Source of the DNA: a virus
DNA: 64,000 nucleotides
IMG/VR virus record: IMGVR_UViG_3300005805_009577
Coordinates: 96,001 to 160,000 of that record
Direction: 5' to 3' (one strand)
Position numbers and translations under genes: made by a program. Below are positions 1,824-46,436 of the stretch, piece by piece. Every line of letters starts with the position of its first letter. The first letter of the stretch is position 1. Below the pieces are notes generated by a model. It had not been told where the DNA came from, searched no databases, and worked only from the letters and a program-made list of their open reading frames with translations.

Positions 1824-1937
1824 TAAATATATGCTAAATTAAAAGACTTAATTACAAAATCCTTTTTTGAGTACGTCTTAGGATTGTAGCCGGTCGTGTG
1901 GCCGGAAGGATTATAACTCTTGATAATGAGGTGATTT

Positions 1938-2177
1938 ATGGCTCGTGTTGATGCTATGTCTTTTGTGGATGCGTGGGTTAAGATTTATGAGCAGGGTGGC
2001 TCGCAGAGTGATGTTGCTCGTGAAATTGGCACTTCGGCCGCCAATGTTTCTACTCGTGCTAAGAAGTTGCGTGAGGCCGGAGTTGATCTGCCTGAACTCA
2101 AGGTTACTCGTACTGGCACTACGATTGACGTTGATTCGCTTAACGAGCGTCTTTCGGCTCGACTTGCGAAGGCTTGA
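1938..2177 (+). CDS. small HTH DNA-binding protein, cassette family copy 1
   Basis: QSDVAREIGTSAANVSTRAKKLR fits an HTH pattern; GAGGTG RBS; motif at 1871; terminator downstream. Confidence 0.9.
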   Translation: MARVDAMSFVDAWVKIYEQGGSQSDVAREIGTSAANVSTRAKKLREAGVDLPELKVTRTGTTIDVDSLNERLSARLAKA

Positions 2178-2206
2178 ACTTAAAGGGTGTAAATTTCACC
2201 CGTCCA

Positions 2207-2243
2207 CAACCCTGGGTTTTAAAAACCCAGGGTTGTTTTTTTT
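2207..2243 (+). terminator. intrinsic terminator
   Basis: CAACCCTGGGTTT/AAACCCAGGGTTG stem followed by a T-run. Confidence 0.85.
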
Positions 2244-2258
2244 ATAAACATCAAACAT

Positions 2259-2573
2259 ATGAATAATCTACTAGAAAAATTTGCCAAAGTTAAAAAAATA
2301 TCTATATTTGGGAAAAGGTGGTTTCAAAAAACATATGGAAACACTTACCATAGTTCCGAAATATATGTGAACGATAAACTTGTTCATAAAATAGAATTTT
2401 GCTATGGCTATGGAAGTCAATATGAATGGAATTCATTTACCTGGTTGAAGCAAAATGGTTATATTAAATTGTCAGAAAAAGATAAGCATTATTGCTTAGG
2501 TCGTTACTGCAGAGAAAATAATATAGAGCTTTGCAACGATGTTGTTGACGTAAACAGAAAAAAAGATCTTTAA
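2259..2573 (+). CDS. hypothetical phage protein
   Basis: KRWFQKTYGNTYHS...YGYGSQY pattern; family not named. Confidence 0.75.
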   Translation: MNNLLEKFAKVKKISIFGKRWFQKTYGNTYHSSEIYVNDKLVHKIEFCYGYGSQYEWNSFTWLKQNGYIKLSEKDKHYCLGRYCRENNIELCNDVVDVNRKKDL

Positions 2574-2643
2574 AAGATTTAAGTGACGAGTCCTTTTTTG
2601 GGTACGCCCTCTCTTTACGCAGATGGTTTACTAGGAGACAAAT

Positions 2644-3015
2644 ATGTTTAAAGCCGCTCCGGTGATATTTTTATCATTATCTTTAATTGGAAATATTGAA
2701 GGTATAAAAGAAAATAACATCAACCAAGTTAATAATGTTAATAAAAAAACTATTAAATTTTTAAATAAAAAGGCTACTTTTAAGCAACATTTAAAGGACA
2801 TAGAAAATCAATTCAACATATCTATTAAAATTGACAAACAGTCCCTTCAAAAACATGGCATTTCAATTAATCAAAGCATAGTGATTGAAGAAAAAGAATA
2901 TACATTTTCTGAATCACTGGATTTATTGACTACAAAAATTTGTATTTTTAATCGACAAAAAGTTGTTTTTTGGTCTATTGACGAAGTTAACAACGTAATG
3001 ATTTTTGGCAAATAA
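2644..3015 (+). CDS. exported protein with STN-like domain
   Basis: Signal-like N-terminus; IKIDKQSLQKHGISINQSI..FSESLDLL resembles planctomycete STN-type modules; AGGAG RBS; motif at 2602. Confidence 0.55.
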   Translation: MFKAAPVIFLSLSLIGNIEGIKENNINQVNNVNKKTIKFLNKKATFKQHLKDIENQFNISIKIDKQSLQKHGISINQSIVIEEKEYTFSESLDLLTTKICIFNRQKVVFWSIDEVNNVMIFGK

Positions 3016-3029
3016 TCAAGGAGGTTAAA

Positions 3030-3296
3030 TTGGCTATTATTCAGTTGGTAGTTAGTACCTTGGGATTGCTTTGGTTTATTTTTGGCGATAACAGTATAGC
3101 AATTAAAAGAATGACGCCTATAAAGCAAACAAATTTGCAAATAGGAGTTATAAAACAGCCAATTCAAAATCAAAAAGCAGGAGTTCAGTGGATATACAGA
3201 GGAAGAGACAACTACTATTACTATTACAGTGATATTTCTAACACTTATTTATGCAGAGTAAATATAGTTACTGGTGCGGTTGACTATAAAATTTAG
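3030..3296 (+). CDS. membrane-anchored hypothetical protein, paralog of 41430
   Basis: TTG start after GGAGG; W-x-YRG-x-D...YYSD-x-S...RVNI shared with 41430. Confidence 0.75.
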   Translation: MAIIQLVVSTLGLLWFIFGDNSIAIKRMTPIKQTNLQIGVIKQPIQNQKAGVQWIYRGRDNYYYYYSDISNTYLCRVNIVTGAVDYKI

Positions 3297-3442
3297 TCTT
3301 TAGTTTTATTGGCCAGCCTAATAAATGCATATGCTATAGAAAGTTCTATAAACATTATAATTGGCCAGCAAACTAATATTGGGTAAATTTGTTGCATTGT
3401 ACAATAATATAGTGATCTGACTTAAATTTTTATAGGTGTAAA

Positions 3443-3733
3443 ATGAATAAAATTGTTTACGGAAAAGTTAGCGGAACAGGCGAATTTCCACTTGATATGC
3501 TTAGGTATGATGTTTGTTCTCCTGCTACAGAACAAGATAGTTATTTAATTTCACGCACATTTAATCTTGAATCAAGGTGTCGTGGTGTTTGGGAAATTTA
3601 TGTAAAAAGAATTCTTTTAGAGCATAAAAAAGGAATGAACACCTTCACTTATGATAGGTGGCGGAGTTTCGGCTGTAGAGTGGAAGAGACTAAGGATGGA
3701 ATTCACGGCCAACGTCAAGGAAACTTATTTTAA
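3443..3733 (+). CDS. hypothetical phage protein
   Basis: VSGTGEFPLDMLRYDVCSP; AGGTG RBS. Confidence 0.75.
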   Translation: MNKIVYGKVSGTGEFPLDMLRYDVCSPATEQDSYLISRTFNLESRCRGVWEIYVKRILLEHKKGMNTFTYDRWRSFGCRVEETKDGIHGQRQGNLF

Positions 3734-3743
3734 GGAAAAATAA

Positions 3744-3956
3744 ATGTTTTTTGCACCAGATCATCATGCTAATATAAAGATAATGAAGTGGGTTGAATCG
3801 GCCATGCAAAGTGCCATGATAATTCAGTATGAAGTTTCAATGGGCAAAATTAATAAATGTCATTTTCAAACAATGATAAACAGCGTTTCTTACAATGTGA
3901 CCAAAGAAATTATTAAAGAAAAGACTCTATTAAGGTGCGAACCCAGCGTTAATTAG
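3744..3956 (+). CDS. hypothetical protein
   Basis: AAGGA RBS, co-directional. Confidence 0.55.
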   Translation: MFFAPDHHANIKIMKWVESAMQSAMIIQYEVSMGKINKCHFQTMINSVSYNVTKEIIKEKTLLRCEPSVN

Positions 3957-3965
3957 CACACAGGC

Positions 3966-7924: not shown

Positions 7925-8006
7925 CATTGGGGTTAAAAGTCTTTCTTTGAGTACGCCCTCGTGTTGTCACCCGTGTTCTTTCTCACCTTAATTTAAAGGT
8001 ATAAAA

Positions 8007-8165
8007 ATGACGCTTGACAGAGCAGCAGAAATTGTTAAGGTTCTTCCTATGGGTAGTATGAAGTTAGAATTGTTTGACCATTTTTGCGGATTGTTCAATC
8101 TTAATGAAAATAAAATTCTTAGAGACAAGTTTGTTATTGATTGTGGTTATAAGTTGGAGGGCTGA
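8007..8165 (+). CDS. small hypothetical protein (52 aa)
   Basis: MTLDRAAEIVKVLPMG...; AAGGT RBS; motif at 7951; below the ORF-track cutoff. Confidence 0.65.
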   Translation: MTLDRAAEIVKVLPMGSMKLELFDHFCGLFNLNENKILRDKFVIDCGYKLEG

Positions 8166-9308: not shown

Positions 9309-9373
9309 ATTAAAACCTCTTTTTTGAGTACGCCCGTCTTTTGCCCCCTCGCTATATCTATAGGTAATATACA

Positions 9374-10789
9374 ATGCAAATTAAAGACGAAAACGGAAAA
9401 GTTATTGCAAGTATTGATCTTCAAGAAGGTTGCTCTATTTCCGACCTTTTAAAGAGTATTTCTTCTGGCAAGAAAGAAAAGAATTCTCTTAATACTCTCA
9501 AGGAAATTAAAGAAAGTGAAGACAAAAAGCAAATAGTTTTCAATTTTAACGATGGCTTTATATGTTATGATCTGCCTACAAAGACTTTTGTTAGGAAAAA
9601 TGGACTGAAAATTGGTGAAGGCTCCTTTAAGAGCATCAAGCTTAATCTTAAAAATAAGATTGTAACTCTAAATCATAGGGAAAGAGATACTTTCTGGCTT
9701 GAGTTAAAAGAAAAGACAGATGTTGTTTGGATTAAGACATTTTTTAGTCTTATAGACATATGGGCTAATAACAAGCATAAGCAAGGTCATTGGCAAAGTG
9801 TTAGAGATAGAAATGCCAAGAATAAAATTCAAGTCTTGACTAAAGACAAAAAGTTTTTTGACTCGCTAGAAGCATTTTCTAAGTTGACAAAAATTCAGTC
9901 TTTGAATGAAGACGATCTTAAGAGTCTTTATGATAATCTTCTTGAAATTAGCAACAAAGAAAATAAAGAAGACAAAAGTGCTCTAGGTTACAGCGTGAGA
10001 ATAAGTCCAAAAAGCACTATAGATAAATGGTTCATTGAAAGGTGTGACAAAGCTGTATCAGAAAACTATTCTAATGGCGAATCCTTAATTAATCACATGG
10101 GCGATTACATCAAGTGTAGTACGCATAAGGTAAAAGACTTATTTCAGTATGTATTTGAAGAGTACAATGGAGTGATTGCTTTTAAGCAAATAGAAAAAAT
10201 CAAGAAGTTAATTGGTTTTGGCTATGAGCCTAAAAGGTTGATGGACTATCTTTATAGAGACATTTATAATCAGGGCTTAGAATTAGATTTAGAAACTAGG
10301 TGGCATAATTCTGATTGTGCACTTTCTATGCTCTGTGATTATGCAAGCATGAATCAAGATATGAATCTAGTATATGAAAAGTATCCTAGGTATCTTTCTA
10401 CGTATCATGACGTTACGCAAAAGAATTATAAGATTGAAGAAGATAAAATAATTAAAGAAAAATTTCATAAAAGGGTTCTAGGGTTAAAAGAACAAGGATT
10501 AGAATATTCTGATAAGGAGTATTCTATTGTTCTTCCAAAGAATGGCGAAGAATTAGTTATCGAAGGACAAGATCTAAGTCATTGCGTTGCTAGTTACTAT
10601 AAACGAATGGCTTGTGGCGAAACTGCTGTCGTGTTTCTTAGAAAGAATAGCAGTATCAATCAAAGCCTTGTAACCATAGAAATTAAAGATAATGACATAG
10701 TACAAGCAAAAGGTAAAAACAACTCTAATCCGCAAGAAAAAGAAATAGAATTCATCAACAAGTATAAAAATTATTTACTAAAAAAGTAA
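9374..10789 (+). CDS. PcfJ-like domain protein
   Basis: C-terminal LPKNGEELVIEGQDLSHCVASY...FLRK...VTIEI...IVQAKG; motif at 9328. Confidence 0.85.
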   Translation: MQIKDENGKVIASIDLQEGCSISDLLKSISSGKKEKNSLNTLKEIKESEDKKQIVFNFNDGFICYDLPTKTFVRKNGLKIGEGSFKSIKLNLKNKIVTLNHRERDTFWLELKEKTDVVWIKTFFSLIDIWANNKHKQGHWQSVRDRNAKNKIQVLTKDKKFFDSLEAFSKLTKIQSLNEDDLKSLYDNLLEISNKENKEDKSALGYSVRISPKSTIDKWFIERCDKAVSENYSNGESLINHMGDYIKCSTHKVKDLFQYVFEEYNGVIAFKQIEKIKKLIGFGYEPKRLMDYLYRDIYNQGLELDLETRWHNSDCALSMLCDYASMNQDMNLVYEKYPRYLSTYHDVTQKNYKIEEDKIIKEKFHKRVLGLKEQGLEYSDKEYSIVLPKNGEELVIEGQDLSHCVASYYKRMACGETAVVFLRKNSSINQSLVTIEIKDNDIVQAKGKNNSNPQEKEIEFINKYKNYLLKK

Positions 10790-13661: not shown

Positions 13662-14603
13662 TTGAAAATATTAATCACTGGTGCCTGCGGTTTTATTGGC
13701 GGGCATTTTTTAGACAAAATTTTAGAAGATTCTAATTATGAAGTATCAGTAATAGATAAAATCACCTACGCAGCAAATTCAGACAACTTAAAAAAAATAT
13801 TTACTAAAAATATTCCTTTTTTTCCTTTTGGAATAGAAGAAACAAAAAAAGTAAATGAAATTATTAAAAATTTAAATATAGACGTAATTTTAAACTTTGC
13901 TGCAGAAACACATGTCGATAATTCTATAAAAGATTTACGACCCTTTATTGCTTCTAACATAAATGGTGTATATTCTTTGTTGGAGTCTTGTCGAACTTTT
14001 GGCACAAAATTAATTCACATCAGCACAGATGAAGTTTACGGACCTGCTAATTGGGATCCATTTAAAGAAGATGATAAATTAAATCCATTAAATCCATATT
14101 CCGCCACCAAGGCTGCATCAGAACATCTAATACTAAGTTATTGCAATACATTTAAAATTGATTACTTAATAGTTAGGCCCAGCAATAATTATGGGCCAAG
14201 ACAAAATAAAGAAAAATTTATTCCAAAGTATATTAATTGTCTAAAAGAAAATAAAAAATTTCCTCTTTATGGCGATGGGTTACAAGTAAGAGAGTGGTTT
14301 TTTGTAAAAGATTGTGCAGATTCAATAAAAAGACTATTGCCACCCTCCAGAACATTAAATAATGTTTATAATATCGGTTGTCCGCGTAGCAAACAGTTTA
14401 ATATTGATGTTCTTAAAATAATCCATAGTTTTTATAATCCAAACAATACTGCATTTGAAAATACTATAGAATTTGTAGAAGACAGAAAAGGTCACGATAA
14501 AAAATATGCAATAAATATAGAAAGATTTTTTAAAGAATTTAAAAATTTAAACTCTACTCCTTTAGAAGAAGGATTAAAACAAACAATAGATTATTACAAG
14601 TAA
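13662..14603 (+). CDS. rmlB: dTDP-glucose 4,6-dehydratase
   Basis: ITGACGFIG, DKITYAA, NFAAETHVDNS, HISTDEVYG, YSATKA, NNYGPRQ, DRKGHD. Confidence 0.95.
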   Translation: MKILITGACGFIGGHFLDKILEDSNYEVSVIDKITYAANSDNLKKIFTKNIPFFPFGIEETKKVNEIIKNLNIDVILNFAAETHVDNSIKDLRPFIASNINGVYSLLESCRTFGTKLIHISTDEVYGPANWDPFKEDDKLNPLNPYSATKAASEHLILSYCNTFKIDYLIVRPSNNYGPRQNKEKFIPKYINCLKENKKFPLYGDGLQVREWFFVKDCADSIKRLLPPSRTLNNVYNIGCPRSKQFNIDVLKIIHSFYNPNNTAFENTIEFVEDRKGHDKKYAINIERFFKEFKNLNSTPLEEGLKQTIDYYK

Positions 14604-14736
14604 ACAATTGTGTGGGCAGCCCTTTTTTGGGTACGGTCGTAGGGGGAGCGGCTGAATAAGGGCGTGGAGTCGCCCCGAAAGATTTGCATTTATTCATTAT
14701 TTTTTTTAAAAATGCAAAACGAATAGGGGCGGAAAA

Positions 14737-19682: not shown

Positions 19683-19746
19683 AAGTGTATATGGGTACGC
19701 TTTTTAAGTGTTGTGACCGTATTGTAATCTTTAACAAATTATAAAA

Positions 19747-20422: not shown

Positions 20423-20558
20423 AAAATGGTTTGTGGAATATAAAACATCTTAAAAAATAGGAATACAAAGTTACCGGACTTTTTTGGAGTACGCCCTCCT
20501 GTTATGGTCTGCGGTTTACGGCCAAGAAGTTTTTTTACTCTTACCTTTTAATATCAAA

Positions 20559-22921: not shown

Positions 22922-22988
22922 GTTTGATGGTCTTTTCGGGGTACGGCCGGTAGTTGGTAGTCGAGAGAACAATACAAGGAACATTAAA

Positions 22989-23204
22989 ATGGCGTCGGTT
23001 ATTGTTGGAGAAAATATTGACCGTTTTCGTCTCCTTACTATTGCTAGTGCTTTGCGACTTGAAAGCAAAGGGCTTAAGGGCAAGATTAAGGCAAGTGTAA
23101 TTGCTCGACAAATTCTTAAGGCTAACGGAATTGTTCCTGCTAAACTGCTGGTAGAACTTTGCGAGCAGTTTAAGAACTTTGTTGTTGAAAAGAACAAGGA
23201 ATAA
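22989..23204 (+). CDS. small basic hypothetical protein
   Basis: AAGGA RBS; motif at 22941; GC-richer codon usage. Confidence 0.8.
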   Translation: MASVIVGENIDRFRLLTIASALRLESKGLKGKIKASVIARQILKANGIVPAKLLVELCEQFKNFVVEKNKE

Positions 23205-23323: not shown

Positions 23324-23396
23324 GGCCCCATAGTATAACGGTTCAGTATATCGGGCTTTCATCCCGAAGATCGGAGTTCGATTCTCCGTGGGGTCA
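23324..23396 (+). tRNA. tRNA-Glu(TTC)
   Basis: GGCCCCA/TGGGGTC acceptor, TCGGG-CT-TTC-AT-CCCGA, GTTCGA T-loop; no encoded CCA. Confidence 0.92.
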
Positions 23397-24170: not shown

Positions 24171-24182
24171 GAAGAAAAAATT

Positions 24183-25983: not shown

Positions 25984-26058
25984 TCTAAAATAAGAAAAGA
26001 TTTAAATATATGTTTATTTTAAATAAATTCAATCTAAATCTAGGTACGCTATAGCGTT

Positions 26059-26203
26059 GCATCAGGAATGTATGCCATTGAGCGTACAAGCAACCTGCCG
26101 ACGCAAGGCAAGGTGCTTTCAGTAACACTTGTTATTGAGATGTGCGTGAGAGGATTATCTCACGAACTATATTGCGTGGGTTATTATAACCCATTTCTGA
26201 TGC
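26059..26203 (+). ncRNA. candidate structured RNA
   Basis: Closing stem GCATCAGGA/TTCTGATGC enclosing three hairpins; starts at the G of the motif TTG. Confidence 0.55.
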
Positions 26204-28393: not shown

Positions 28394-28413
28394 TAAAATT
28401 GATAAATAAATTT

Positions 28414-30021: not shown

Positions 30022-30167
30022 TTATTTCATAGCACTCTAATGCGTTTATTGAAACATTTTAAAAAGCTAAATTAAAAATTATTCACGGTACGCTCAAGAT
30101 TTGTAGGGTAGCGGTGTAAATTTAAGAATTAAGTTATAATCTCAGCAAATAAAATCAGAACAGTTTT

Positions 30168-35676: not shown

Positions 35677-35785
35677 AACATTATTTAATTATTAACCTTA
35701 AAAGGTGTTTTTGGGGTACGTCTTAGCGTTGTAAGCCGACACTGGTTCGGTAAAAGACTGGAATGATAAATTTAGAGGTGATAAT

Positions 35786-36016
35786 ATGGCTAAGGTTGAC
35801 GCTGCTTCGTTTGTGGATGCGTGGGTTAAGATTTATGAGCAGGGTGGCTCGCAGAGTGATGTTGCTCGTGAAATTGGCACTTCGGCTGCTAACGTGTCGA
35901 ATCGTGCTAAGAAGTTGCGTGATGCGGGAGTTGATCTTCCCGAACTGACGATTACGCGTGGTGTTAAGCTTGACGTTGAGTCGCTTAACGCTCGGCTGAA
36001 GGCTCGGATTGGTTGA
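35786..36016 (+). CDS. small HTH protein, cassette family copy 2 (recombinant)
   Basis: Motif at 35716; GAGGTG RBS; 5' part identical to copy 1, 3' part identical to the 40977 copy. Confidence 0.9.
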   Translation: MAKVDAASFVDAWVKIYEQGGSQSDVAREIGTSAANVSNRAKKLRDAGVDLPELTITRGVKLDVESLNARLKARIG

Positions 36017-36084: not shown

Positions 36085-36166
36085 ATTGCTAAAATATAAA
36101 GACCTTCTCTGGGTACGGCAGTCTGTTGTCAGGGACGGTAATAACAAACATATAAGAGAACCTACT

Positions 36167-36448: not shown

Positions 36449-36519
36449 CCTAGGTGGAAACCGGTAGGCAAGTCACTCTTATAAGGTGACGACGCAAGGT
36501 TCGACTCCTTGACCTAGGA
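36449..36519 (+). tRNA. tRNA-Ile(TAT), atypical D-arm
   Basis: CCTAGGT/ACCTAGG acceptor, TCACT-CT-TAT-AA-GGTGA, CAAGG-TTCGACT-CCTTG; D-arm short and poorly paired. Confidence 0.7.
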
Positions 36520-36532
36520 CTTAATATTTAGC

Positions 36533-36730
36533 ATGGATACAGCCGCATATAAACAACTCTACGATCTTTATGTTGTTGCTAAGTCTGAAACAAATAATTT
36601 AGACTATATCAACGAACTGATTGACCAAATTTTATTTTTTGGAACTGAGACAAACAAGTTGACCAAAACCCATGTTCAAGAACGACTTAAAGATGTGCTT
36701 GAATCTATTGAACGATCGCTGCTAAAATAG
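36533..36730 (+). CDS. hypothetical protein
   Basis: ORF between two tRNAs. Confidence 0.65.
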   Translation: MDTAAYKQLYDLYVVAKSETNNLDYINELIDQILFFGTETNKLTKTHVQERLKDVLESIERSLLK

Positions 36731-36738
36731 TTTAATAT

Positions 36739-36811
36739 GGGAGTATAGTCCAACGGCAGAGACAAAGGACTTAAAATCCTTCAAGTTCAGGTTCGAATCC
36801 TGATACTCCTA
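36739..36811 (+). tRNA. tRNA-Leu(TAA), short variable loop
   Basis: GGGAGTA/TACTCCT acceptor, AAGGA-CT-TAA-AA-TCCTT, TCAGG-TTCGAAT-CCTGA. Confidence 0.9.
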
Positions 36812-37034
36812 CTTATGCTAGTTCATTTAGAAAACGGTAAAACTTATAAAATAGTAGAATCTTGGATTAAAGAAAAGAAAATCTACTATCCTGCCGACAT
36901 ATTAGGTATGAATCTGCCCGAACCAAAACCCAGGTTCAAATTAACGCCTAAAGGAATTAAAATAAAAGAATAAGACTCTTGAATCATAAATTTTTTTCTG
37001 ATATAATATTTTCAATTATAGGAGAAAAAAGTTT

Positions 37035-37619: not shown

Positions 37620-37695
37620 TAAAATTAGCAGCCCCTTTTCGGGGTACGGTCTGATAACGGCCCGATAACAACCATCCCTTTCCGCGAGGATACTT

Positions 37696-37896
37696 ATGTT
37701 TAATTTTGAAGGTAAGGATTACGAGTTGATCGACGGCAACATTGTTGACAGCCGTACTTATCTTTTGGTTTGCAACGAAGTTGCTACCAAGATTTGTGAA
37801 ACTTTCGGCGTTACGATGAAGCAAGAGCAAACTTCGCGGGAAAACATCGACGTTGCTTTTCTGAACAGTCGGATTAAGAACAAGATTGGTGCTTAA
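37696..37896 (+). CDS. small hypothetical protein
   Basis: GAGGA RBS; motif at 37644; GC-richer codons. Confidence 0.8.
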   Translation: MFNFEGKDYELIDGNIVDSRTYLLVCNEVATKICETFGVTMKQEQTSRENIDVAFLNSRIKNKIGA

Positions 37897-37898: not shown

Positions 37899-38972
37899 AT
37901 GGATAACAAGTTCACACTATCATCTGAAAAACTTGAATCACGACGGCTGTGTAGTGTAACTAGAGACTTGCTTTATGTTCGGGTGCGGTTTAGCGATCAG
38001 GCTAACGCACCTGAAACTATAGAGACAAGCAACTTTATTGTGAACAAAACGGCAACTGCTATTCGAGATTTTAGTGGAGGACAAGTTAATCTTTCCACTA
38101 CTATACGAGATGTAACATTGCCGTATAGGGCAAGTTATTATGGCACTAATACTTACACAATTTCTAATCACGCTCAAAATATACTTCGTCAATCTGGACT
38201 GAACCTGAATAATTACGAACATAGTAATTTCAGGTACAACAGTCGTGCAGGATTTTTTGTAGGTTTAGGAGAAGTAGGCGGTAAGATTACTTGGACTAAA
38301 GACTCTGATCCGGGTACGCTTATTCATGAAATTGGACATAATTTAGGATTGCGTCATAGCAGTTTTGTTAATCCAAATAATAATGCTCATCCTTTTGGGC
38401 CAGGACGAACTTTTGAATATGGCGATGTATTTTCCAATATGGGTAATGCTCGTTATACCGATTGGAACGCAACTCAAAAGTGGGCTTTAGGTTACATTTC
38501 AAACAACAGTGTTAGAGCTGTAAATGCTAATAGTTTTAATATCGTTGTTAGCTCTCATGACAATGCAGCGTTTTACAATAAAAGCGAAGTATATCTAGTT
38601 AATATTCCTATTGGTGGTAACAATTCAATATATGCAAGTTACAGGCGTGATGCCGGCGGTGTTGTGATTCATGTTGGCAATAGTTTTAGGCCAACCGGCG
38701 ATACTTTAATTGACGGCAATCCGCAAACTGAATTGAGTACAGACGCTGCTCTTAAACTTGGACAGTCAATTACCAATTTTAGAAGGCCGGGAGTTAGCGA
38801 CGATATTAGAATTACTGTAACGAGCATTGTGGGCAATCGTGCAACCATTAATGTGAACTTCGGTGCAGTCGTACCTAAAATAGCTCATAATGCAAACTTG
38901 ATTGCTGCATTTGCAAGCATGGCAAACGAACCTGTAGAAAGATGCAAAATCAGATACCCTGTTAGGTTGTAG
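37899..38972 (+). CDS. secreted metzincin metalloprotease (M11/gametolysin-like) with planctomycete-type N-terminal motif
   Basis: HEIGHNLGLRH zinc motif, YGDVFSNMG Met-turn; EKLESRRLCS resembles the planctomycete extracellular motif. Confidence 0.85.
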   Translation: MDNKFTLSSEKLESRRLCSVTRDLLYVRVRFSDQANAPETIETSNFIVNKTATAIRDFSGGQVNLSTTIRDVTLPYRASYYGTNTYTISNHAQNILRQSGLNLNNYEHSNFRYNSRAGFFVGLGEVGGKITWTKDSDPGTLIHEIGHNLGLRHSSFVNPNNNAHPFGPGRTFEYGDVFSNMGNARYTDWNATQKWALGYISNNSVRAVNANSFNIVVSSHDNAAFYNKSEVYLVNIPIGGNNSIYASYRRDAGGVVIHVGNSFRPTGDTLIDGNPQTELSTDAALKLGQSITNFRRPGVSDDIRITVTSIVGNRATINVNFGAVVPKIAHNANLIAAFASMANEPVERCKIRYPVRL

Positions 38973-39062
38973 GTTTAAAACTTAAATAAAATTTCAAGAA
39001 AACTTAAAGCCCCTTTTCGGGGTACGCTCTTGAAATGTCGGAGAGTTTACAGGGAGATAACA

Positions 39063-39578
39063 ATGCAACGTAGAAACTTTATCAAAGGCTTACTTGCAAG
39101 TACAGTTGCAGGAACTTTTCCAGCAACGGCAGATGCAAGTGATAACGTTCAACTTAATCAAAGAATTGTAAATATTGCCCGTGGTGCGATTGGCAAGCCC
39201 GGTGGCAATCGTTACAATAGTTGGCTTTTTGGTTATAATGTTATGATGGCTGCTGGTGGTCGTGGGCCTTATCATGGCCCGCAAAACCAATATGCTTGGG
39301 GTAGACCAATAGGTTGGAATGAACTTGGCCCGGGCGATTATATTCAAATTGAATCGCCAACTGTTTTTAAAACCCCTCCGCCTAATTGTCGTGCATATTG
39401 GGGTTGTAGTGGACGTTGCACTTGGATTGTTTTAAACAGACAAAATGGTCGAGCACCTGGAAGCGTACTTAACATAGCGTATATGTATCGTGTGAACAGG
39501 GTGCAGGCTGCTAGGATTGACGTTTGGGATAGAACTTGTGGAAACCAAATATATCTTTACAGACCACAATTACGGTAA
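39063..39578 (+). CDS. Tat-signal protein, NlpC/P60/CHAP-like fold, catalytic residues apparently altered
   Basis: MQRRNFIKGLLA..ADA Tat signal; NQRIVNIAR..IG...AAGG..YAWGRPI....PGDYIQ; motif at 39022. Confidence 0.6.
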   Translation: MQRRNFIKGLLASTVAGTFPATADASDNVQLNQRIVNIARGAIGKPGGNRYNSWLFGYNVMMAAGGRGPYHGPQNQYAWGRPIGWNELGPGDYIQIESPTVFKTPPPNCRAYWGCSGRCTWIVLNRQNGRAPGSVLNIAYMYRVNRVQAARIDVWDRTCGNQIYLYRPQLR

Positions 39579-40059: not shown

Positions 40060-40178
40060 AAATCCTCCTTGAATATTAGCTTCCTAATAGTATTTATAAA
40101 AAAGAAATAATAAAATTCAATCATCCTTTTCGGGGTACGGCTCTAGGATACTAGCCGGTAAAACCTGAGAGAAAAAAA

Positions 40179-40427
40179 ATGAACACTATTTATCCAAAAG
40201 GTGCATGGAACGTACGGATTAAGGCAAACATTGAAACTTTTCTTGATGCCTATTTGACGGTACTTAACAACGGTGGTAATTACGGCGATGTTGCTCGAAT
40301 TATCGGCTGTGAAATCATTGATGTTCAATTTGCAGAAGTGCGAATCCGTGCAAGCGGAGTTAAACTTCCTAGGCTGAATTTTACTGAGGAAAATGATGAT
40401 CGAGTTGTTATGCTGATGCAGTCATAA
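40179..40427 (+). CDS. small HTH protein, divergent cassette-family member
   Basis: FLDAY....NGGNYGDVARIIG....RASGVKLPRL; motif at 40135. Confidence 0.85.
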   Translation: MNTIYPKGAWNVRIKANIETFLDAYLTVLNNGGNYGDVARIIGCEIIDVQFAEVRIRASGVKLPRLNFTEENDDRVVMLMQS

Positions 40428-40465: not shown

Positions 40466-40500
40466 AAATACACCCGGTCTTTCGACCGGGTGTATTTTTT
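40466..40500. terminator. intrinsic terminator, possibly bidirectional
   Basis: AAATACACCCGGTC-TTTC-GACCGGGTGTATTT plus T-run, between convergent genes. Confidence 0.85.
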
Positions 40501-40507: not shown

Positions 40508-40852
40508 TTAAAAGTTTTTTGGGGTACGGTGTATTGACCAATTTTTATTAAACAAAAAAAGAAAAATTAATCCAGTGATTAAAAACAAGGTCGAATTAGG
40601 TTCAGGTACTGGCGTGGGTACCGGTTCTGGTTCTGGTGTTCTTAATATCATTGCTAAAAAATACATGCTTTGATCGCTGGCTACAACAGAAGTATCAGCA
40701 GTATAATTAAAACTTTCGCCAAGAAGTTCTAAAAAATGATCTACGTTATACTCAGAATATAAATCAAAAGGATCGCTATACCAATGATAGCCGTTAATAT
40801 ATGATCCTGATGCGTAGCCTATATTAAGCAAATCTATTTCGGCAGTTTCCAT
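40508..40852 (-). CDS. PEP-CTERM sorting-domain protein (start uncertain)
   Basis: PEPEPVPTPVPEPNSTLFLITGLIFLFLFNKNW: VPEP, TM helix, basic tail. Confidence 0.75.
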   Translation of the reverse strand: METAEIDLLNIGYASGSYINGYHWYSDPFDLYSEYNVDHFLELLGESFNYTADTSVVASDQSMYFLAMILRTPEPEPVPTPVPEPNSTLFLITGLIFLFLFNKNWSIHRTPKNF

Positions 40853-40976
40853 AGCCCACTCCAATAATATTATACAAAAAAATAAATTAATTAAAAGATA
40901 GAAATAAAGCCTCCTTTTTGGGGTACGTTTTGGGGTTGTGGTTCGATTGGTTCTAATAAACAGGAGACTGGTTAAA

Positions 40977-41204
40977 ATGCGAGTTGATGCTGCTACTTTC
41001 GTCGATGCTTGGGTCAGTGCTTTCGAAGCCGGTGGCAATCAGAGTGACGTTGCCCGTACGCTTGGTTGTAGTGCTGCTAACGTGTCGAATCGTGCTAAGA
41101 AGTTGCGTGATGCGGGAGTTGATCTTCCCGAACTTACCGTGACTCGTGGTGTTAAGCTTGACATTGAGTCGCTTAACGCTCGGCTTAAGGCTCGGATTGG
41201 TTGA
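40977..41204 (+). CDS. small HTH protein, cassette family
   Basis: AGGAGA RBS; motif at 40923. Confidence 0.9.
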   Translation: MRVDAATFVDAWVSAFEAGGNQSDVARTLGCSAANVSNRAKKLRDAGVDLPELTVTRGVKLDIESLNARLKARIG

Positions 41205-41262: not shown

Positions 41263-41429
41263 CCCTTAATATTAAAAATACTTTTTGGGGTACGGAGGCC
41301 GTGTGCGGCCGGTTAAGGGGATCGTCAAGGGTGACCCGTGCGGCCGATATACCCCTTGACTTTTAATATAACTTAATTAATCAAAAATAATATGATTTAA
41401 TAAAATAATCAAAACTCAAGGATGGAGCA

Positions 41430-41792
41430 ATGATTAGTTTACCAAAGTTTGCAAGGAGGGGAATTTTGTTATATTTACAAATTGCGGCGGCTGTTGTTAG
41501 TCTTTTGCTTGGGCTTGCCCAAATGACAAAAGAATCACAACCATTAATTCAAAAGATGCAACAAAACCATCAACAGGCCGTTGCACAAAAACAAACAGAA
41601 AAAGCATGTCGCAAAGCATGTGAAATTGCAAACATGCAGATAGCATGGCAGTTTAGGGGGTACGATAGCAATTGGAGATATTATAGCGATCCTAGTGGAA
41701 GGTTTTGGGCTAGAGTTAATATTCAAGGCATATATGAGTATTGTGAAAGCCCGAATTATCAAATTGCAAATAACCCTATAACAATTCGTTAA
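41430..41792 (+). CDS. membrane-anchored hypothetical protein, paralog of 3030
   Basis: TM helix, Gln-rich linker, WQFRGYD..WRYYSDPSG..RVNI. Confidence 0.8.
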   Translation: MISLPKFARRGILLYLQIAAAVVSLLLGLAQMTKESQPLIQKMQQNHQQAVAQKQTEKACRKACEIANMQIAWQFRGYDSNWRYYSDPSGRFWARVNIQGIYEYCESPNYQIANNPITIR

Positions 41793-42235: not shown

Positions 42236-42291
42236 ATCAAGAATCATGCTGGTTTAAATAAAGAATCCTTTTCGGGGTACGGTATTGAGTT

Positions 42292-42505
42292 GCGGCTGGT
42301 TAAGAGACTCTTGACTCCCGCTAATTTTTAATTATAATAAGAAGATATTCAGTTATGACCACGTAACGGAGGGTACGTTAGAAGTTAAGGACTATGGGCC
42401 TTACACGAACTCCTACTGAATATCCTGCAATACAAAGTTAATAAAACGCCACCGCCAACACTCCGAAAGCACTAACCAACAGTTGCGATTAGGGGTGACA
42501 GGCGT
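42292..42505 (+). ncRNA. candidate structured RNA region
   Basis: Hairpin 42292-42321; GATATTCAGT/ACTGAATATC stem (42344-42424) with inner hairpins; element 42446-42505; no ORF. Confidence 0.5.
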
Positions 42506-42607
42506 AAAAAAATAATAAATTAAATTAACCAGTATCATTAAAAAGTCTTTTGGGAGTACGTCCTAAGGTTGTGGTGGTTACGACCCGCGAAACCGGAGCA
42601 TAAAACA

Positions 42608-43263: not shown

Positions 43264-43437
43264 TATACTCAATATACTTGCTATTTTAAGTACATTAACA
43301 CTCAATGGAAGTGAATTTGGATGTACTCTTTGGGCAAATTTAACATTGTTTAGGTTCTAATTGAAAGTTAACCGCACCTTTTAGCGGTACGGTAACTGGG
43401 TGTGACGGTTGGAACTAACCCCTAGGAGAAGGTTAAC

Positions 43438-43665
43438 ATGCGAGTTGATGCCAACACTTTCATCGACACTTGGTGCGACGTTTACGACAACGGTGGAAAT
43501 CAAAGTGACGTTGCAAGGCGTTTAGGTTGCAGTGCGGCTAACGTAAGTAATCGTGCAAAGAAACTGCGTGATGCCGGAGTTGATTTGCCTGAATTGACAG
43601 TTACTCGTGGTGTGAAACTTGATATTGAAAGTCTAAACGCAAGGCTGCGTGAACGAATCGGTTAA
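43438..43665 (+). CDS. small HTH protein, cassette family
   Basis: AGGAGA RBS; motif at 43387; near-duplicate of 44304. Confidence 0.9.
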   Translation: MRVDANTFIDTWCDVYDNGGNQSDVARRLGCSAANVSNRAKKLRDAGVDLPELTVTRGVKLDIESLNARLRERIG

Positions 43666-43842
43666 ATAAATATACCGAAAGTTATACCCGGAGTAAAATC
43701 CGGGTATAACCGTTTATATTAAAAATCCTTTTAGAGGTACGGCAGGATAGAACAAGTTTGTGAACTTACTTGTGAAGGTTAAAACAAACTTGTGAAACCT
43801 TTTCGGAGTACGGCTACGGGTTAACCCCGGAGAAATATACCA

Positions 43843-44031
43843 ATGAGCCAGCGAGTTAAAGAGCAAATGAAACGTGATGCTGAAATTCACGCTAACGGCC
43901 GGTTTACTCCACGAGATAGAGAAGATGTTAATCGTATTGTGGAGATACTTGTGAACCGGCAATTTGCCGTTAGGGTATCATCAGAAGTTGAAACCCAAGT
44001 AAACGAAACGATCAAAGAAATAATTAATTGA
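43843..44031 (+). CDS. small hypothetical protein
   Basis: GGAGA RBS; motif at 43808; palindrome downstream. Confidence 0.8.
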   Translation: MSQRVKEQMKRDAEIHANGRFTPRDREDVNRIVEILVNRQFAVRVSSEVETQVNETIKEIIN

Positions 44032-44108
44032 GAGAAAAGATTATACCTAGGTTAAACTGGGTATAATCGTTATAATTACAAATTGTTTTTGGGGTACGGC
44101 AAAAGGTT

Positions 44109-44227
44109 GCTAAGCCGCCTATGAATAGCACTCGTTAGGTAGTTCGGATGGGCGACAACTAACGATAAAAGCGGATAGTTATATTACTTGTTTCTCCGTG
44201 AGTAATATAATGAAATATAACGGAGAC
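44109..44227 (+). ncRNA. candidate structured RNA
   Basis: TCGTTAG/CTAACGA and TTATATTACT/AGTAATATAA stems; alternative TCTCCGT/ACGGAGA pairing; follows motif 44094; no ORF. Confidence 0.45.
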
Positions 44228-44303
44228 TATATTTTAAAAATTAAAAGTTAATTTTGGGGTACGGTAACTGGGTGTGATCGGTTAACCCTTGGAGATAACA
44301 ATC

Positions 44304-44534
44304 ATGGCACGAGTTGACGCTGGCAATTTCATCGAAGTGTGGTGCGACGTTTACGACAACGGTGGAAATCAAAGTGACGTTGCCCGTAAACTGGGTTGCA
44401 GTGCGGCTAACGTAAGTAATCGTGCAAAGAAACTGCGTGATGCCGGAGTTGATTTGCCTGAATTGACAGTTACTCGTGGCGTTAAACTTGACATTGAAAG
44501 TTTGAATGCCCGGCTGCGTGAACGAATCGGTTGA
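44304..44534 (+). CDS. small HTH protein, cassette family
   Basis: GGAGA RBS; motif at 44259. Confidence 0.9.
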   Translation: MARVDAGNFIEVWCDVYDNGGNQSDVARKLGCSAANVSNRAKKLRDAGVDLPELTVTRGVKLDIESLNARLRERIG

Positions 44535-44620
44535 AAAAAGTGTGAACGCGAGTTATACCCGGAGTAAAATCCGGGTATAACCGTTTATATTAAAAAACCT
44601 TTTAGGGGTACGGCTATAGG

Positions 44621-44650
44621 TTGACAATTTGATTGGTAATAAAGTATAAT
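44621..44650 (+). promoter_or_regulatory. consensus sigma70 promoter fused to a motif copy
   Basis: TTGACA-18-TATAAT; its TTG is the N8-spaced TTG of motif 44608. Confidence 0.6.
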
Positions 44651-44715
44651 TAAAAAAAAGATTACTATTGGCTTTTAGGGGTACGGTAGGTTGACGTCTC
44701 ACAGGAGAAAACGAA

Positions 44716-44784: not shown

Positions 44785-44867
44785 AGTAGGCAAAACTTTT
44801 TTGCCGACGACAGTTGTCTTTTTGGGGTACGTTGAGACGGTGGGTTCAGTCGTCCAGGAGAAACATC

Positions 44868-44942
44868 GTGCGAAATGCAGATAAGGCGATTTTGGCGGTT
44901 TCATTCATCATGGGCATTATCGTCGCTATTATAATCGCCTAA
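44868..44942 (+). CDS. micro membrane protein (24 aa)
   Basis: AGGAGA RBS, GTG start; MRNADKAILAVSFIMGIIVAIIIA; motif at 44827. Confidence 0.7.
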   Translation: MRNADKAILAVSFIMGIIVAIIIA

Positions 44943-45058
44943 AAGAAGTTATACCCTAGGATAAGCCTAGGGTATAACCGTTGATACTACGAAACCTTTT
45001 TTGGGTACGTTATCGGGGTGTCGCCGGTTGAGAGCGACAAACTAACGGAGAAAAAGAA

Positions 45059-45289
45059 ATGGCACGGGTTGACGCTGGTAGTTTCGTCGATGCTTGGATG
45101 GATGCTTATGACAAGGGTGGCAATCAGAGCGACGTTGCTCGTACGCTTGGTTGCTCTGCCGCGAACGTTTCGAACCGTGCTAAGAAACTTCGGGAAGCCG
45201 GGGTTGACCTGCCTGAACTTCAGGTTGTGCGGGGCGTCAAGTTGGATATTGAAAGCCTGAACGCTCGTCTTAAGGCGAGGATCGGCTGA
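45059..45289 (+). CDS. small HTH protein, cassette family
   Basis: GGAGA RBS; motif at 45005; near-duplicate of 46098. Confidence 0.9.
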   Translation: MARVDAGSFVDAWMDAYDKGGNQSDVARTLGCSAANVSNRAKKLREAGVDLPELQVVRGVKLDIESLNARLKARIG

Positions 45290-45368
45290 TAACAAAAGTT
45301 ATACCCGGGGTAAAACCCGGGTATAACCCTTTACACACATATACCTTTTTGGGGTACGGCAAGAGGGC

Positions 45369-45452
45369 ATGGATACTATCATCGCTATTACGTTTGCTTT
45401 CGTCGGTGCCGGGTTTATAGGCAAGTATCTTTGGAACGAAATGGAATATTAA
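45369..45452 (+). CDS. micro membrane protein (27 aa)
   Basis: MDTIIAITFAFVGAGFIGKYLWNEMEY; ATG begins 11 nt after motif core 45354. Confidence 0.65.
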   Translation: MDTIIAITFAFVGAGFIGKYLWNEMEY

Positions 45453-45522
45453 ACGAACGGCTACAGCCGCCAAGGCGATGCCGGTCTTTTCGGGGTACGG
45501 CGGACATGAGGAGGGCAAAGCG

Positions 45523-45645
45523 ATGCCTCTAGTAAGTGCAATCGTCTTCTTATTAATCCGTAGCGTATCTGCTAGGCTATATCGGATTAGCCAGGTTCGT
45601 TCTGAACCGGTTTATCCAGTTCTTATCGGAGCAAAAGGAAGGTAG
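45523..45645 (+). CDS. micro-protein (40 aa)
   Basis: GAGGAGG RBS; motif at 45495. Confidence 0.55.
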   Translation: MPLVSAIVFLLIRSVSARLYRISQVRSEPVYPVLIGAKGR

Positions 45646-45649
45646 ACCC

Positions 45650-45757
45650 ATGACTATAGATGAAGCAATGGCATTTAGTTTCGTTCGTTATGGCATTATG
45701 TCTTACGAAGAATTCCTAGTATGGCTAGCAAAACAGCAGATAGTAAAGGCTAGCTAG
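45650..45757 (+). CDS. micro-protein (35 aa)
   Basis: AAGGAAGG RBS; MTIDEAMAFSFVRYGIMSYEEFL...; palindrome follows. Confidence 0.6.
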   Translation: MTIDEAMAFSFVRYGIMSYEEFLVWLAKQQIVKAS

Positions 45758-45854
45758 GTAGATTACACCCTAGAGAAAATCTAGGGTGTAATCCTAACAA
45801 TCCCCTGAGCTTTTTGGGGTACGTTACAGGGTTGTCTCAAGGAGGATGACAACA

Positions 45855-46019
45855 ATGGAAACAGCAGTTAGCATCGCGGTTATGATGGGAGTTGGATTTG
45901 CGGCTGCCCTTGCACAAGTTATTTCGGACATGATGGAAGAAAAGGCCATTGTCCGAAACAACGAAGACAAGGCTAGGATCATCATGGAAGAATACGAAGA
46001 ATATACGGAGGGGGTATAA
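45855..46019 (+). CDS. small membrane protein (54 aa)
   Basis: GGAGGA RBS; TM helix plus acidic tail; motif at 45819. Confidence 0.7.
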   Translation: METAVSIAVMMGVGFAAALAQVISDMMEEKAIVRNNEDKARIIMEEYEEYTEGV

Positions 46020-46097
46020 CATACCCTTATCTGACCTAGAACCTTTTTGGGGTACGTTACAACATCGTGGTCGATAACACTAACTGGAGAAAAAGAA

Positions 46098-46328
46098 ATG
46101 GCACGAGTTGACGCTGCTAACTTCGTCGATGCTTGGATGAACGCGTATGAGAACGGTGGCAATCAGAGTGACGTTGCCCGTGACCTTGGTTGTAGTGCTG
46201 CGAACGTCAGCAACCGGGCTAAGAAACTTCGGGATGCCGGGGTTGACCTGCCTGAACTGACCGTCACGCGGGGCGTCAAGTTGGATATTGAAAGCCTGAA
46301 CGCTCGACTGAAGGCTAGGATCGGTTGA
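46098..46328 (+). CDS. small HTH protein, cassette family
   Basis: GGAGA RBS; motif at 46052. Confidence 0.9.
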   Translation: MARVDAANFVDAWMNAYENGGNQSDVARDLGCSAANVSNRAKKLRDAGVDLPELTVTRGVKLDIESLNARLKARIG

Positions 46329-46436
46329 ACCTAAGTTATACCCTAGGGAAACCTAGGGTATAACCCTTTACATGCATATACCTTTTCGGGGTACGGCAAG
46401 GGTATGTGGATCGGTTAACCCTAGGAGAAAAGAATC

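Follow-up and report, generated by a model that had tools for sequence, protein, structure and literature searches.

An uncultured giant T4-related phage carries about 60 repeats of a short signal before its non-structural genes, and this locus raises the question of whether the signal is a promoter and, if so, which polymerase reads it. In the window, by which we mean the whole 64,000-nt stretch of DNA analyzed, all 37 copies of GRGTACG lie on the + strand; the expectation was 2.51, and none of 100 shuffles gave more than 7. The first-pass annotation had counted 35 copies, all on the + strand, and we found exactly this number between 1869 and 46395, although many copies in this island are paralogous cassette duplicates and are therefore not independent observations. 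The extended form GRGTACG-N8-KTG was found 18 times in the window (0.10 expected), with 13 TTG and 5 GTG, and the 15 TTG and 6 GTG tallied earlier are recovered when three variant cores are included, at 26042 (AGGTACG), 30086 and 43385 (both CGGTACG). Across the whole 181-kb contig, the + and - strand counts were 46 and 0 for GRGTACG, 66 and 11 for RGTACG, and 76 and 20 for GTACG, and the true core of the motif is RGTACG. Non-coding DNA makes up 19.5% of the contig but holds 52 of the 66 + strand RGTACG copies (binomial p = 4.5e-25). When the background was an order-2 Markov model built from the intergenic sequence, no 6-mer there was more over-represented than GGTACG (42 vs 2.1 expected, with no reverse-complement copy), and GGGTACG reached 31 vs 0.47, so the enrichment survives the comparison with a shuffled intergenic background that had been set in advance as its test.

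The box is a single conserved block followed by a fixed downstream signature. Among the 52 non-coding RGTACG copies, 44 carry a pyrimidine-purine step exactly 10 nt 3' of GTAC (+14/+15 from its G; background 23%). The step is mostly TG, which occupies this offset in 30 of the 52 copies (background 5.8%) and is found no more than 10 times at every other offset from 8 to 23 nt. Conservation in the position weight matrix spans -8 to +17, with the consensus cCTTTTyG-(G/N)RGTACG-ky in this phage and A/T-rich upstream flanks in all lineages. The box has no -35 word upstream and no associated RNA structure or 5' stem; the stems previously described as starting at the G of TTG do not generalize. The absence of a -35 had been remarked on in the first-pass annotation and is borne out here, whereas the link it drew to the GGGTAW elements of SigB/SigF-type factors rests on a superficial likeness, since relatives use GGTACG or TGTACCCTA and only GTAC is conserved.

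Ribosome sites begin 0-5 nt past TTG, and no -10 element lies at a fixed distance 3' of it, which confirms that TTG cannot generally serve as a -35. At the box at 45817-45834, AAGGAGG begins 5 nt past TTG, ahead of ORF 45855-46019. At 44679-44696, where TTG is displaced and the start position is CG, AGGAG lies 17 nt past the core, matching the roughly 18 nt noted before; GGAG lies equally far past the core at 43806-43823 (5' of ORF 43843-44031), and the ribosome site of the box at 45493-45510 lies 13-15 nt past the G of GTAC (5' of ORF 45523-45645). The box at 45352-45369 places its predicted +1 on the A of an ATG, as previously proposed, and this ATG opens a 27-codon hydrophobic ORF (45369-45452), making it a candidate leaderless mRNA. 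In related phages, five copies in contig G002 have a ribosome site beginning at +15, earlier beginnings being rare, and the 5' end of the tRNA-Ile(UAU) of G001 coincides with the TTG of its box within 1 nt. The pyrimidine-purine signature, typical of the start sites of multisubunit bacterial polymerase, recurs at the same exact offset in three phages. Together, these findings suggest that transcription quite likely starts at the TG, probably at the G of TTG as the first-pass annotation had put it, with GTAC in the -10 region. Counted from such a start, GTAC would span about -15 to -12, and the T-tract would lie further upstream, at about -25 to -19.

Boxes in the window, all on the + strand, precede both protein genes and tRNA genes. 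HTH-family genes follow the boxes at 1869-1886 (T-tract plus GAGTACG, N9, TG; gene 1938-2177), 35714-35731 (35786-36016), 40921-40938 (40977-41204), 44257-44274 (44304-44534), 45003-45020 (45059-45289) and 46050-46067 (46098-46328), as well as the variant CGGTACG...TG at 43385-43402 (43441-43662), while distant HTH paralogues follow those at 40133-40150 (start position TA; about 40178-40427) and 46389-46406, the last of the island (paralogue ending near 46679). Other protein genes lie behind 2600-2617 (GGGTACG, start position TA; ORF 2644-3015), 7949-7966 (GAGTACG...TG; small ORF 8007-8165), 9326-9343 (PcfJ-like gene 9374-10789, whose orthologue in G001 is likewise preceded by a box), 22939-22956 (ORF 22989-23204), 37642-37659 (start position CG; ORF 37696-37896 and a metallopeptidase-like gene, 37899-38972), 39020-39037 (ORF 39063-39578), 41288-41305 (a GC-rich structured leader and ORF 41430-41792), 42554-42571 (GAGTACG...TG; ORF ending at 42832) and 44825-44842 (GTG; small ORF). 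The box at 36111-36128 has a hairpin 5' of it and a small ORF, then tRNA-Ile and tRNA-Leu (36449-36812), downstream.

The box at 23441-23458, 5' of tRNA-Lys (23523-23596), shares its TTG with a sigma-70-type promoter (TTGACG-N17-TATAAT, 23456-23484), and the TTG at 44606-44623 likewise opens a consensus TTGACA-N18-TATAAT (44621-44650). ORF-less units are headed by the boxes at 44092-44109 and 42275-42292, the latter with a sigma-70-type promoter (42311-42338) downstream, and the variant AGGTACG...TG at 26042-26059 heads a unit almost or entirely devoid of ORFs. The island shows no excess of sigma-70-type sites (38 vs 34.7). Further copies lie at 14629-14646 (3' of the epimerase gene 13662-14603, start position GG, no clear ORF directly downstream), 19693-19710 (GGGTACG...TG, no T-tract), 20487-20504 (GAGTACG, start position TA) and 30086-30103 (CGGTACG...TG, 3' of gene 28399-30021), and a weak AGGTACG variant with AA at the start position (43735-43752) stands in tandem with the box at 43806. 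The atypical GGGTACG at 42371-42388, inside an ORF-less unit, has neither T-tract nor pyrimidine-purine step and is probably non-functional, and three of the 35 copies (35051, 38312 and 41658) are intragenic, lack both T-tract and TG, and look like chance occurrences.

To place the box in a wider context, we compared this phage's contig (G000) with the related contigs G001-G005 and an L-series, all incomplete (CheckV estimates of 29-79%; the G002 type spans 381 kb or more). GGTACG occurs 26 times on the gene strand and twice on the other in G001, with the same TG offset, and L042, L157 and L165 carry 3-5 intergenic copies each. G002 and G005 hold 71-76 copies of aaTAAT-TGTACCCTA-N5-kTG on one strand, and this form shares the GTAC-N10-TG spacing with the GGTACG-bearing relatives. 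No GTAC box was found in G003, G004, L158-L160, L166 or L167 (sigmas 33-50% identical), most of which are seen only as 10- to 20-kb pieces. Both members of an orthologous pair are preceded by the box in at least 10 cases for G000 and G001 and in 3 cases for G000 and G002, among them rIIA, an ATPase, DNA ligase and the PcfJ-like gene, and in three diverged phages its distance to the orthologous core genes behind it stays within 30-55 nt. The first-pass annotation had postulated a third promoter class beside sigma-70-like and TATAAATA boxes. The GTAC box behaves as a promoter class, being strand-specific, intergenic, placed after terminators and conserved before orthologues, whereas TATAAATA is spread evenly over both strands of this contig (30 vs 31), which leaves its standing as a class here unsupported. 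Judged from sequence and its conservation, the box very probably functions as a promoter. We consider it probable that it represents a -35-independent phage class, read by the host core polymerase with a phage factor, for which an RpoD-like sigma is a candidate.

The strongest competing explanation, in our view an unlikely one, is an early promoter read by the host housekeeping sigma holoenzyme, in which a -35-less -10 region and a UP-like A/T tract would suffice with no phage factor. The box is TAnnnT-like (TACCCT in G002, TACGKY in this phage), G002's TACCCT keeps T-12, A-11 and T-7 if transcription starts 7 nt downstream, and the A/T-rich flanks occur in all lineages. The sigma operon itself sits behind a box, and the motif-driven cassette islands resemble the hyperplastic regions of T4-like phages, which are built of units of a PeSL terminator and an early promoter (PMC4122927). 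On the other hand, the invariant non-consensus bases (a G before TA, and behind it C and G in this phage but CCC in G002) differ by lineage. To our knowledge, housekeeping sigma specificity is nearly universal. Moreover, T is found at -7 in only 16 of 39 copies in G000 and is unconserved in G001, the inferred start lies 8-9 nt past the hexamer rather than 7, and near-consensus TTGACA-N16-18-TAnAAT promoters form a separate class in the same genomes.

It is improbable that the box is not a promoter at all, serving instead as an RNA site for endonuclease processing or stabilization that sets mRNA 5' ends, or as a DNA site for regulator binding or cassette recombination, such as an operator of the multi-copy HTH family or a PeSL-like shuffling junction. 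Since all genes are co-oriented, strand specificity alone cannot separate DNA from RNA signals, and HTH-family genes with a common recognition helix lie directly behind about 9 copies. Against this, G005 has 75 copies and no HTH-family member, the site lacks the structure or stem already mentioned, and the spacing before orthologous core genes fits an expression signal. Some copies also lie directly 3' of intrinsic terminators with no space for another promoter, as at 40522-40539 (start position CC), 25 nt past a canonical terminator (40466-40497 plus T-run), and next to abutting terminators in G002. A secondary role in recombination is possible.

Similarly improbable is a promoter of a phage-encoded single-subunit or two-barrel RNA polymerase, perhaps virion-delivered and either too divergent to recognize or encoded in the unsequenced part. 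In its favor, the contiguous block of about 17-26 nt with a fixed start and no -35 resembles phage polymerase promoters, and the contigs are incomplete. Against it, the start signature points to multisubunit polymerase, no beta, beta-prime or T7-like family matched over cut-off in G000, G001 or the 381-kb G005, and no ORF of at least 250 aa has a DxDGD-type motif. A weak PF00940 match (E = 0.011) falls in a 4404-aa G005 ORF, but this ORF matched nothing in Pfam, PHROG or PDB, and its language-model neighbors are tape-measure proteins. The T4-related group 2 jumbo phages characteristically encode RpoD-like sigmas and no polymerase (PMC7824862).

For a class read by the host core with a phage factor, as we favor, the contig offers a candidate at its positions 23328-24230, a 300-aa RpoD-like sigma whose regions 2 and 4 pass Pfam cut-offs but which lacks the W433/W434 dyad and most of region 3. 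Of the phage-encoded sigma or RNA polymerase once suggested as reader, only the sigma-70-family gene was thus found. Orthologues occur in every genome carrying the box (52% identity in G001), and no MotA, AsiA or gp55 was detected. The sigmas of phiEco32 and 7-11, which read single-block promoters and whose genes sit behind their own promoters (PMC4331800), provide a precedent for a sigma-read GTAC box. In this phage and G001, the first promoter-like signal met when moving upstream from the sigma operon is a GTAC box, an arrangement that requires the sigma to be autoregulated or a different reader to act first. Counting against this sigma, its region 4.2 is well conserved (S-K-E-R-I-R-Q-I, like sigma-70), so -35 reading would be expected, yet the box has no -35; in addition, the residues reading the -12/-10 region show no clean covariation with the motif variant, and several contigs, listed above, encode a sigma of 33-50% identity but show no box. 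Since the contigs are incomplete, another sigma or an unrecognized polymerase could be encoded elsewhere; G005 has three sigma-region-2 ORFs. We name the RpoD-like sigma only tentatively as the reader.

Altogether, we propose that this phage and its box-bearing relatives use a promoter class with one conserved block and no -35, from which transcription would start at a pyrimidine-purine step, mostly T-G, exactly 10 nt past GTAC. The enzyme would most probably be the host multisubunit RNA polymerase core joined to a phage-encoded specificity factor, for which the RpoD-like sigma is the leading candidate and to which a further factor from the missing part of the genome could contribute. The class would drive rIIA, DNA ligase, the ATPase, the PcfJ-like gene, tRNAs and dozens of small cassette genes; since these are non-structural, it would be an early or middle class rather than a late one.

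In the window, we counted 37 copies of GRGTACG on the + strand, where 2.5 are expected, and none on the − strand; the whole source contig (G000) holds 46 and 0 copies, respectively. The first-pass annotation had listed 35 copies of this repeated promoter-like motif, hereafter the GTAC box, all on the + strand; that number and orientation were confirmed over 1869-46395, and most of the listed copies stand, although three intragenic ones without both flanks look like chance and 42371 is atypical. The 15 TTG and 6 GTG trinucleotides reported at a spacing of exactly 8 nt were reproduced once three variant-core copies were added, and GRGTACG-N8-KTG was seen 18 times in the window against 0.1 expected. 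The true core is shorter than the motif first described. Among intergenic 6-mers, GGTACG stands far ahead in over-representation, with 42 copies against 2.1 expected under an order-2 model of the contig's own intergenic DNA and 0 copies of its reverse complement, which bears out the enrichment over random intergenic background; further copies in the first 90 kb carry TGGTACG, CGGTACG, AGGTACG, and TAGTACG variants. On the + strand, 52 of 66 RGTACG copies are non-coding, although non-coding DNA makes up 19.5% of the contig (p = 4.5e-25), and the position matrix reads cCTTTTyG-GGGTACG-gc-N5-gtTG with no conservation further upstream. Depletion of GTAC, as a sign of restriction avoidance, was not notable. 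An exact search of IMG/VR for CCTTTTYGGGGTACG returned 25 single matches, all due to chance or to the terminator hairpins of unrelated phages, and searching the literature for the motif strings yielded no description of the motif.

Counting from the G of GTAC, 44 of the 52 non-coding copies have a pyrimidine-purine step at +14/+15 (background, 23%) and 30 have TG there (background, 6%), with at most 10 TG at any other offset from 8 to 23. Bacterial multisubunit polymerases prefer to start at a purine (+1) that follows a pyrimidine (−1), and this pattern makes it reasonably likely that transcription starts at the TG. Ribosome sites, previously placed as near as ~18 nt past the core, were seen 17 nt past it at 43806 and 44679 and 5 nt past the TTG at 45817; in the more distant relative G002, ribosome-site starts peak at precisely +15, with five copies there and only two earlier. 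In G001, the nearest metagenomic relative, the 5' end of a tRNA-Ile(UAU) gene (L126:3384-3474, − strand) lies within one base of the start predicted from GGGTACG-N8-TTG. The primary transcript of this tRNA may have a mature 5' end as soon as it is made, leaving RNase P no leader to remove. The ATG noted earlier at 45369 opens a 27-codon hydrophobic ORF (45369-45452) without a usable ribosome site, and its A is the predicted +1 of box 45352, making the ORF a candidate leaderless mRNA. Since the start is bounded by ribosome sites, the tRNA, and this ORF, TTG is not a general −35 element, and the −10 region is where the GTAC block falls. The stem proposed to start at the G of TTG did not generalize, as the predicted +1 is no richer in stems than other offsets. 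Leaders after boxes (1886-46420) recurrently carry CGGTTAA(C/G) or GCCGGT a few bases past the predicted start (GCCGGT, 14 seen versus 3.3 expected), G002 leaders have TGTTCGATCC...CCCCAACGGAG instead, and such shared words may be 5'-UTR elements.

With ribosome sites starting 0-5 nt after TTG, we agree with the first-pass annotation that TTG is not generally a sigma-70 −35 box, and we rejected this reading for all but two or three dual promoters (23441, 44606). In boxes 23441 (before tRNA-Lys) and 44606, TTG doubles as the start of a −35 TTGAC(A/G), and near-consensus sigma-70-type promoters lie right behind boxes at 23456-23484, 44621-44650, and 42311-42338; judging by these overlaps, 23441 and 44606 are possible dual-class promoters. 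Near-consensus TTGACA-N16-18-TAnAAT promoters form a separate, rarer class, and the island, the dense run of small gene cassettes with many boxes, shows no enrichment of sigma-70-type sites (38 versus 34.7 expected).

Box 40522 lies directly behind an intrinsic terminator (40466-40497), and boxes of G002 abut terminators too. Since such copies directly follow terminators and leave no room for another promoter, they argue for a promoter rather than another signal, and we consider it highly likely that the box is one. Downstream of the boxes lie tRNA genes, ORF-less units, and protein genes. T4 late promoters (TATAAATA) are recognised by gp55 together with gp33 and the gp45 clamp; TATAAATA occurs 30 versus 31 times by strand in the contig, with no bias. 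Because TATAAATA is found before structural genes of G001 and the GTAC box is essentially absent there, the box does not appear to be the late class. Many island copies have hairpins 15-25 nt upstream, and terminator-like sites number 19 in the island versus 9.2 expected. Hairpins of 12-14 bp, GTTATACCC...GGGTATAAC, follow HTH-family genes ~20 nt before the next box at 43681-43710, 44552-44581, 44947-44979, and similar places; they may not be terminators because they lack a good T-run. The ORF at 39063-39578, behind box 39020, has a start, MQRRNFIKGLLAS, that resembles a twin-arginine export signal.

The source contig, an IMG/VR phage sequence of which the window covers positions 96001-160000, is linear, with 181,145 bp, 30.5% GC, and an estimated CheckV completeness of 78%, and its + strand holds almost all genes up to ~143 kb. 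It encodes rIIA, rIIB, DNA and RNA ligases, sugar-modifying enzymes, a PcfJ-like protein, and several tRNAs, and an Rfam search found nothing beyond tRNAs. An alternative genetic code was rejected as the reason for the scarcity of large ORFs, as the standard code is used. No close cultured relatives were found among GenBank phages by nucleotide search with the island or protein search with rIIA. The 135.8-kb G001 carries T4-type baseplate wedge and clamp-loader genes, and G002 belongs to the phage represented by G005 (381 kb or more), since the two have an identical sigma protein. The T4-type genes of G001 and the size of G002/G005 therefore indicate an uncultivated T4-related jumbo phage as the source. 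It matches the "group 2" jumbo phages, which encode sigma factors but no RNA polymerase (PMC7824862).

Between lineages of relatives, core, spacing, and position of the box persist while flanks vary. G001, whose sigma is 52% identical, has GGTACG 26 times on the gene strand and 2 times on the other, with the T and G kept at the same offset and the T-tract absent. Contigs L042, L157, and L165 (sigmas 50-68% identical) hold 3-5 intergenic GGTACG copies each, and all 5 copies in L165 read tTTCTTTtG-GTACGG-N8-YR. G002 and G005 use a variant word, aaTAAT-TGTACCCTA-N5-kTG, with the GTAC-N10-TG spacing unchanged; TGTACCCTA-type copies number 76 in G002 and, in G005, 71 forward versus 4 reverse, and a single 50-kb block with a dense small-cassette island at its end holds nearly all of them, as in the window. 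Boxes precede both members of at least 10 orthologous gene pairs between G000 and G001, including rIIA, an ATPase, and the PcfJ-like gene, and of three between G000 and G002 (the ATPase, DNA ligase, and one unknown gene). No such box was visible in more distant sigma-bearing contigs (G003, G004, and others). At G002 83264-88771 (L137), four TGTACCCTA copies on the reverse strand each have a forward copy ~15-25 nt away, forming inverted pairs (TAGGGTACAA ... TTGTACCCTA) with a strong hairpin next on the − strand in each; these could be divergent promoters for short antisense RNAs or long AT-looped hairpins. Together, strand bias, terminator context, and conservation before orthologous genes support the earlier proposal of a further promoter class beside the sigma-70-like one.

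Of the readers proposed earlier, which included a phage-encoded sigma or polymerase, a sigma is available: the contig has a single gene for a sigma-70-family protein, and no polymerase gene was detected. This 300-aa candidate sigma (contig position 23328-24230) exceeds the Pfam cut-offs for Sigma70_r2 and Sigma70_r4 and is closest to group 1/2 sigmas. Compared with Escherichia coli RpoD, it retains the residues of region 2.3 that surround the base-flipping pocket (FDYRxGFKFSTY) as well as the helix of region 4.2 (SKERIRQI), but W433/W434 are replaced by N/V and most of region 3 is missing. An orthologue is present in 6 of 6 box-bearing lineages, and distant homologues also occur without a visible box. 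In G000 and G001, the sigma operon itself lies behind a GTAC box, and G005 has two further ORFs with sigma region 2; both observations weaken the link between sigma and box. It is further weakened because the recognition-helix residues show no clean covariation with the motif variant and because a conserved region 4.2 is odd for a −35-less promoter. We thus regard the RpoD-like sigma as a plausible though rather doubtful reader of the box. L159 carries two adjacent sigma genes, and relatives encode an 85-90-aa protein matching the RNA polymerase alpha C-terminal domain, usually right after a ClpX-like gene (L158:3729-3992, L159:7266-7523, L166:4465-4731, L167:6196-6462, and G005:C1:169538-169705).

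A multi-copy HTH family lies behind about nine boxes, but was rejected as the general reader because G005 has 75 boxes and no member. MotA, AsiA, and gp55 homologues were not detected. Searches of G000, G001, and the 381-kb G005, contigs that are incomplete, turned up no beta, beta-prime, or T7-like polymerase and no DxDGD-type motif in ORFs of 250 aa or more, and PF00940 had no match in G000 or G001. A 4404-aa ORF of G005 (G005:C1:348024-361238, from L161:13024 to L162:6238) has a marginal match to this T7-polymerase family (PF00940, E = 0.011); as a virion polymerase it is unsupported, with no Pfam, PHROG, or PDB match to sustain that reading, a tape-measure-like character, and tape-measure proteins as its language-model neighbours. 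An XRE-type ORF with weak region-4 matches (contig 45851-46594) is an ordinary HTH protein, not a sigma.

Among known promoter forms, a TAnnnT −10 element fits in part: TACCCT of G002 matches and TACGKY of G000 ends in T in 16 of 39 copies, but G001 lacks the final T and the inferred start of the box lies 8-9 nt downstream rather than ~7. Extended −10, −35-independent promoters (TGnTATAAT), such as the middle and late promoters of Thermus phage P23-45, likewise have no −35 recognition and hold all information beside the −10 region; unlike in these, the TG is not at the canonical place and the C/G within the hexamer is invariant. At −15/−14, where that TG is expected, G000 has G-(G/A)-G before TA and the TG of G002 is off by one base, and the H455/E458 region, whose region 3.0 residues would read it, is missing from the candidate sigma. 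The noted likeness to SigB/SigF-type promoters of Firmicutes (GGGTAT/GGGTAW) holds for the GGGTA shared with the commonest variant of the source phage, but GGG is not conserved, the relatives having GGTACG or TGTACCCTA instead, and the phage sigma is group 1/2-like. In place of the GTTTAA-type −35 that SigB/SigF-type promoters carry, with a spacer of 12-15 nt before the −10, there is only a weak A/T bias upstream, with GTTTAA-N17 in 2 copies. No conserved word that could serve as the −35 of a canonical sigma-70-type promoter, 16-18 nt upstream of the −10, was found at −45 to −12 in G000 or G002, and a −35-like word with variable spacing was rejected, as the enriched words stem from paralogous hairpins. 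The sigma-54 −24/−12 form (GG and GC exactly 10 nt apart, with a start ~12 nt past GC) does not agree with GG-N13-TG and ribosome sites directly after TG.

The closest parallels are functional, since the box fits none of the sequence definitions of phiEco32/7-11, T4 late, or PeSL promoters. By analogy, it would work like the single-block promoters of phage-encoded sigmas. Those of phiEco32 and Salmonella phage 7-11 are single blocks (TAATGTATA and TGTGATGTTATA), their sigma genes lie behind promoters of their own type, and the sigmas are described only as distantly related to the sigma-A family (PMC4331800). The GTAC box shares with them a short block in the −10 region, no −35, intergenic over-representation, and a sigma gene behind such a promoter. 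However, its sequence is unrelated, theirs are small podoviruses and not a T4-related jumbo phage, and the candidate sigma is RpoD-like with regions 2 and 4; their promoters are read by phage sigma with host core polymerase, as the GTAC box would be here. T4 late promoters also combine a T4-related phage, a single −10-region block without a −35, and host core with a phage factor, as proposed here; unlike them, the box drives non-structural genes, differs in sequence, comes with no detected gp55 homologue, and would be read by a sigma that has region 4. Early transcription of T4 relies on the host's sigma-70 holoenzyme. PeSLs are composite terminator and early-promoter cassettes of T4-like hyperplastic regions (PMC2839356, PMC4122927), and the island likewise repeats a hairpin and then a promoter between small variable genes, although its promoter half is the non-canonical GTAC box instead of an early sigma-70 promoter. 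By this likeness, the box would act as the promoter half of a PeSL cassette (PMC4122927), and box cassettes, like PeSLs, could double as recombination junctions.

Altogether, these findings suggest that the GTAC box is very probably a clade-specific, −35-independent promoter class with a start ~11 nt past the GTACG core, serving early/middle non-structural genes. More tentatively than for the sigma as reader, we propose that it might be the cognate promoter code of the RpoD-like sigmas of T4-related group 2 jumbo phages, in which a two-domain sigma without the tryptophan dyad and region 3 would initiate from a single −15 to −8 block with no −35 contact and a start precise enough to yield leaderless mRNAs as well as a tRNA whose 5' end is mature from the outset. 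T4-related jumbo phages, which are abundant in metagenomes, encode RpoD-like sigmas whose promoters are not known, and no RNA polymerase (PMC7824862). If true, the proposal would provide the first promoter specificity for a widespread, uncharacterised family of phage sigmas, and a clade-wide promoter with an exact predicted start makes the pairing of sigma, core polymerase, and template directly testable. The box also offers annotators of uncultivated phages a marker of transcription units and of temporal classes in their genomes and, for engineering, a compact, orthogonal, −35-less promoter. For the phages themselves, it would mean that hyperplastic islands are wired by a private promoter, where T4-like PeSLs instead use host-type early promoters.
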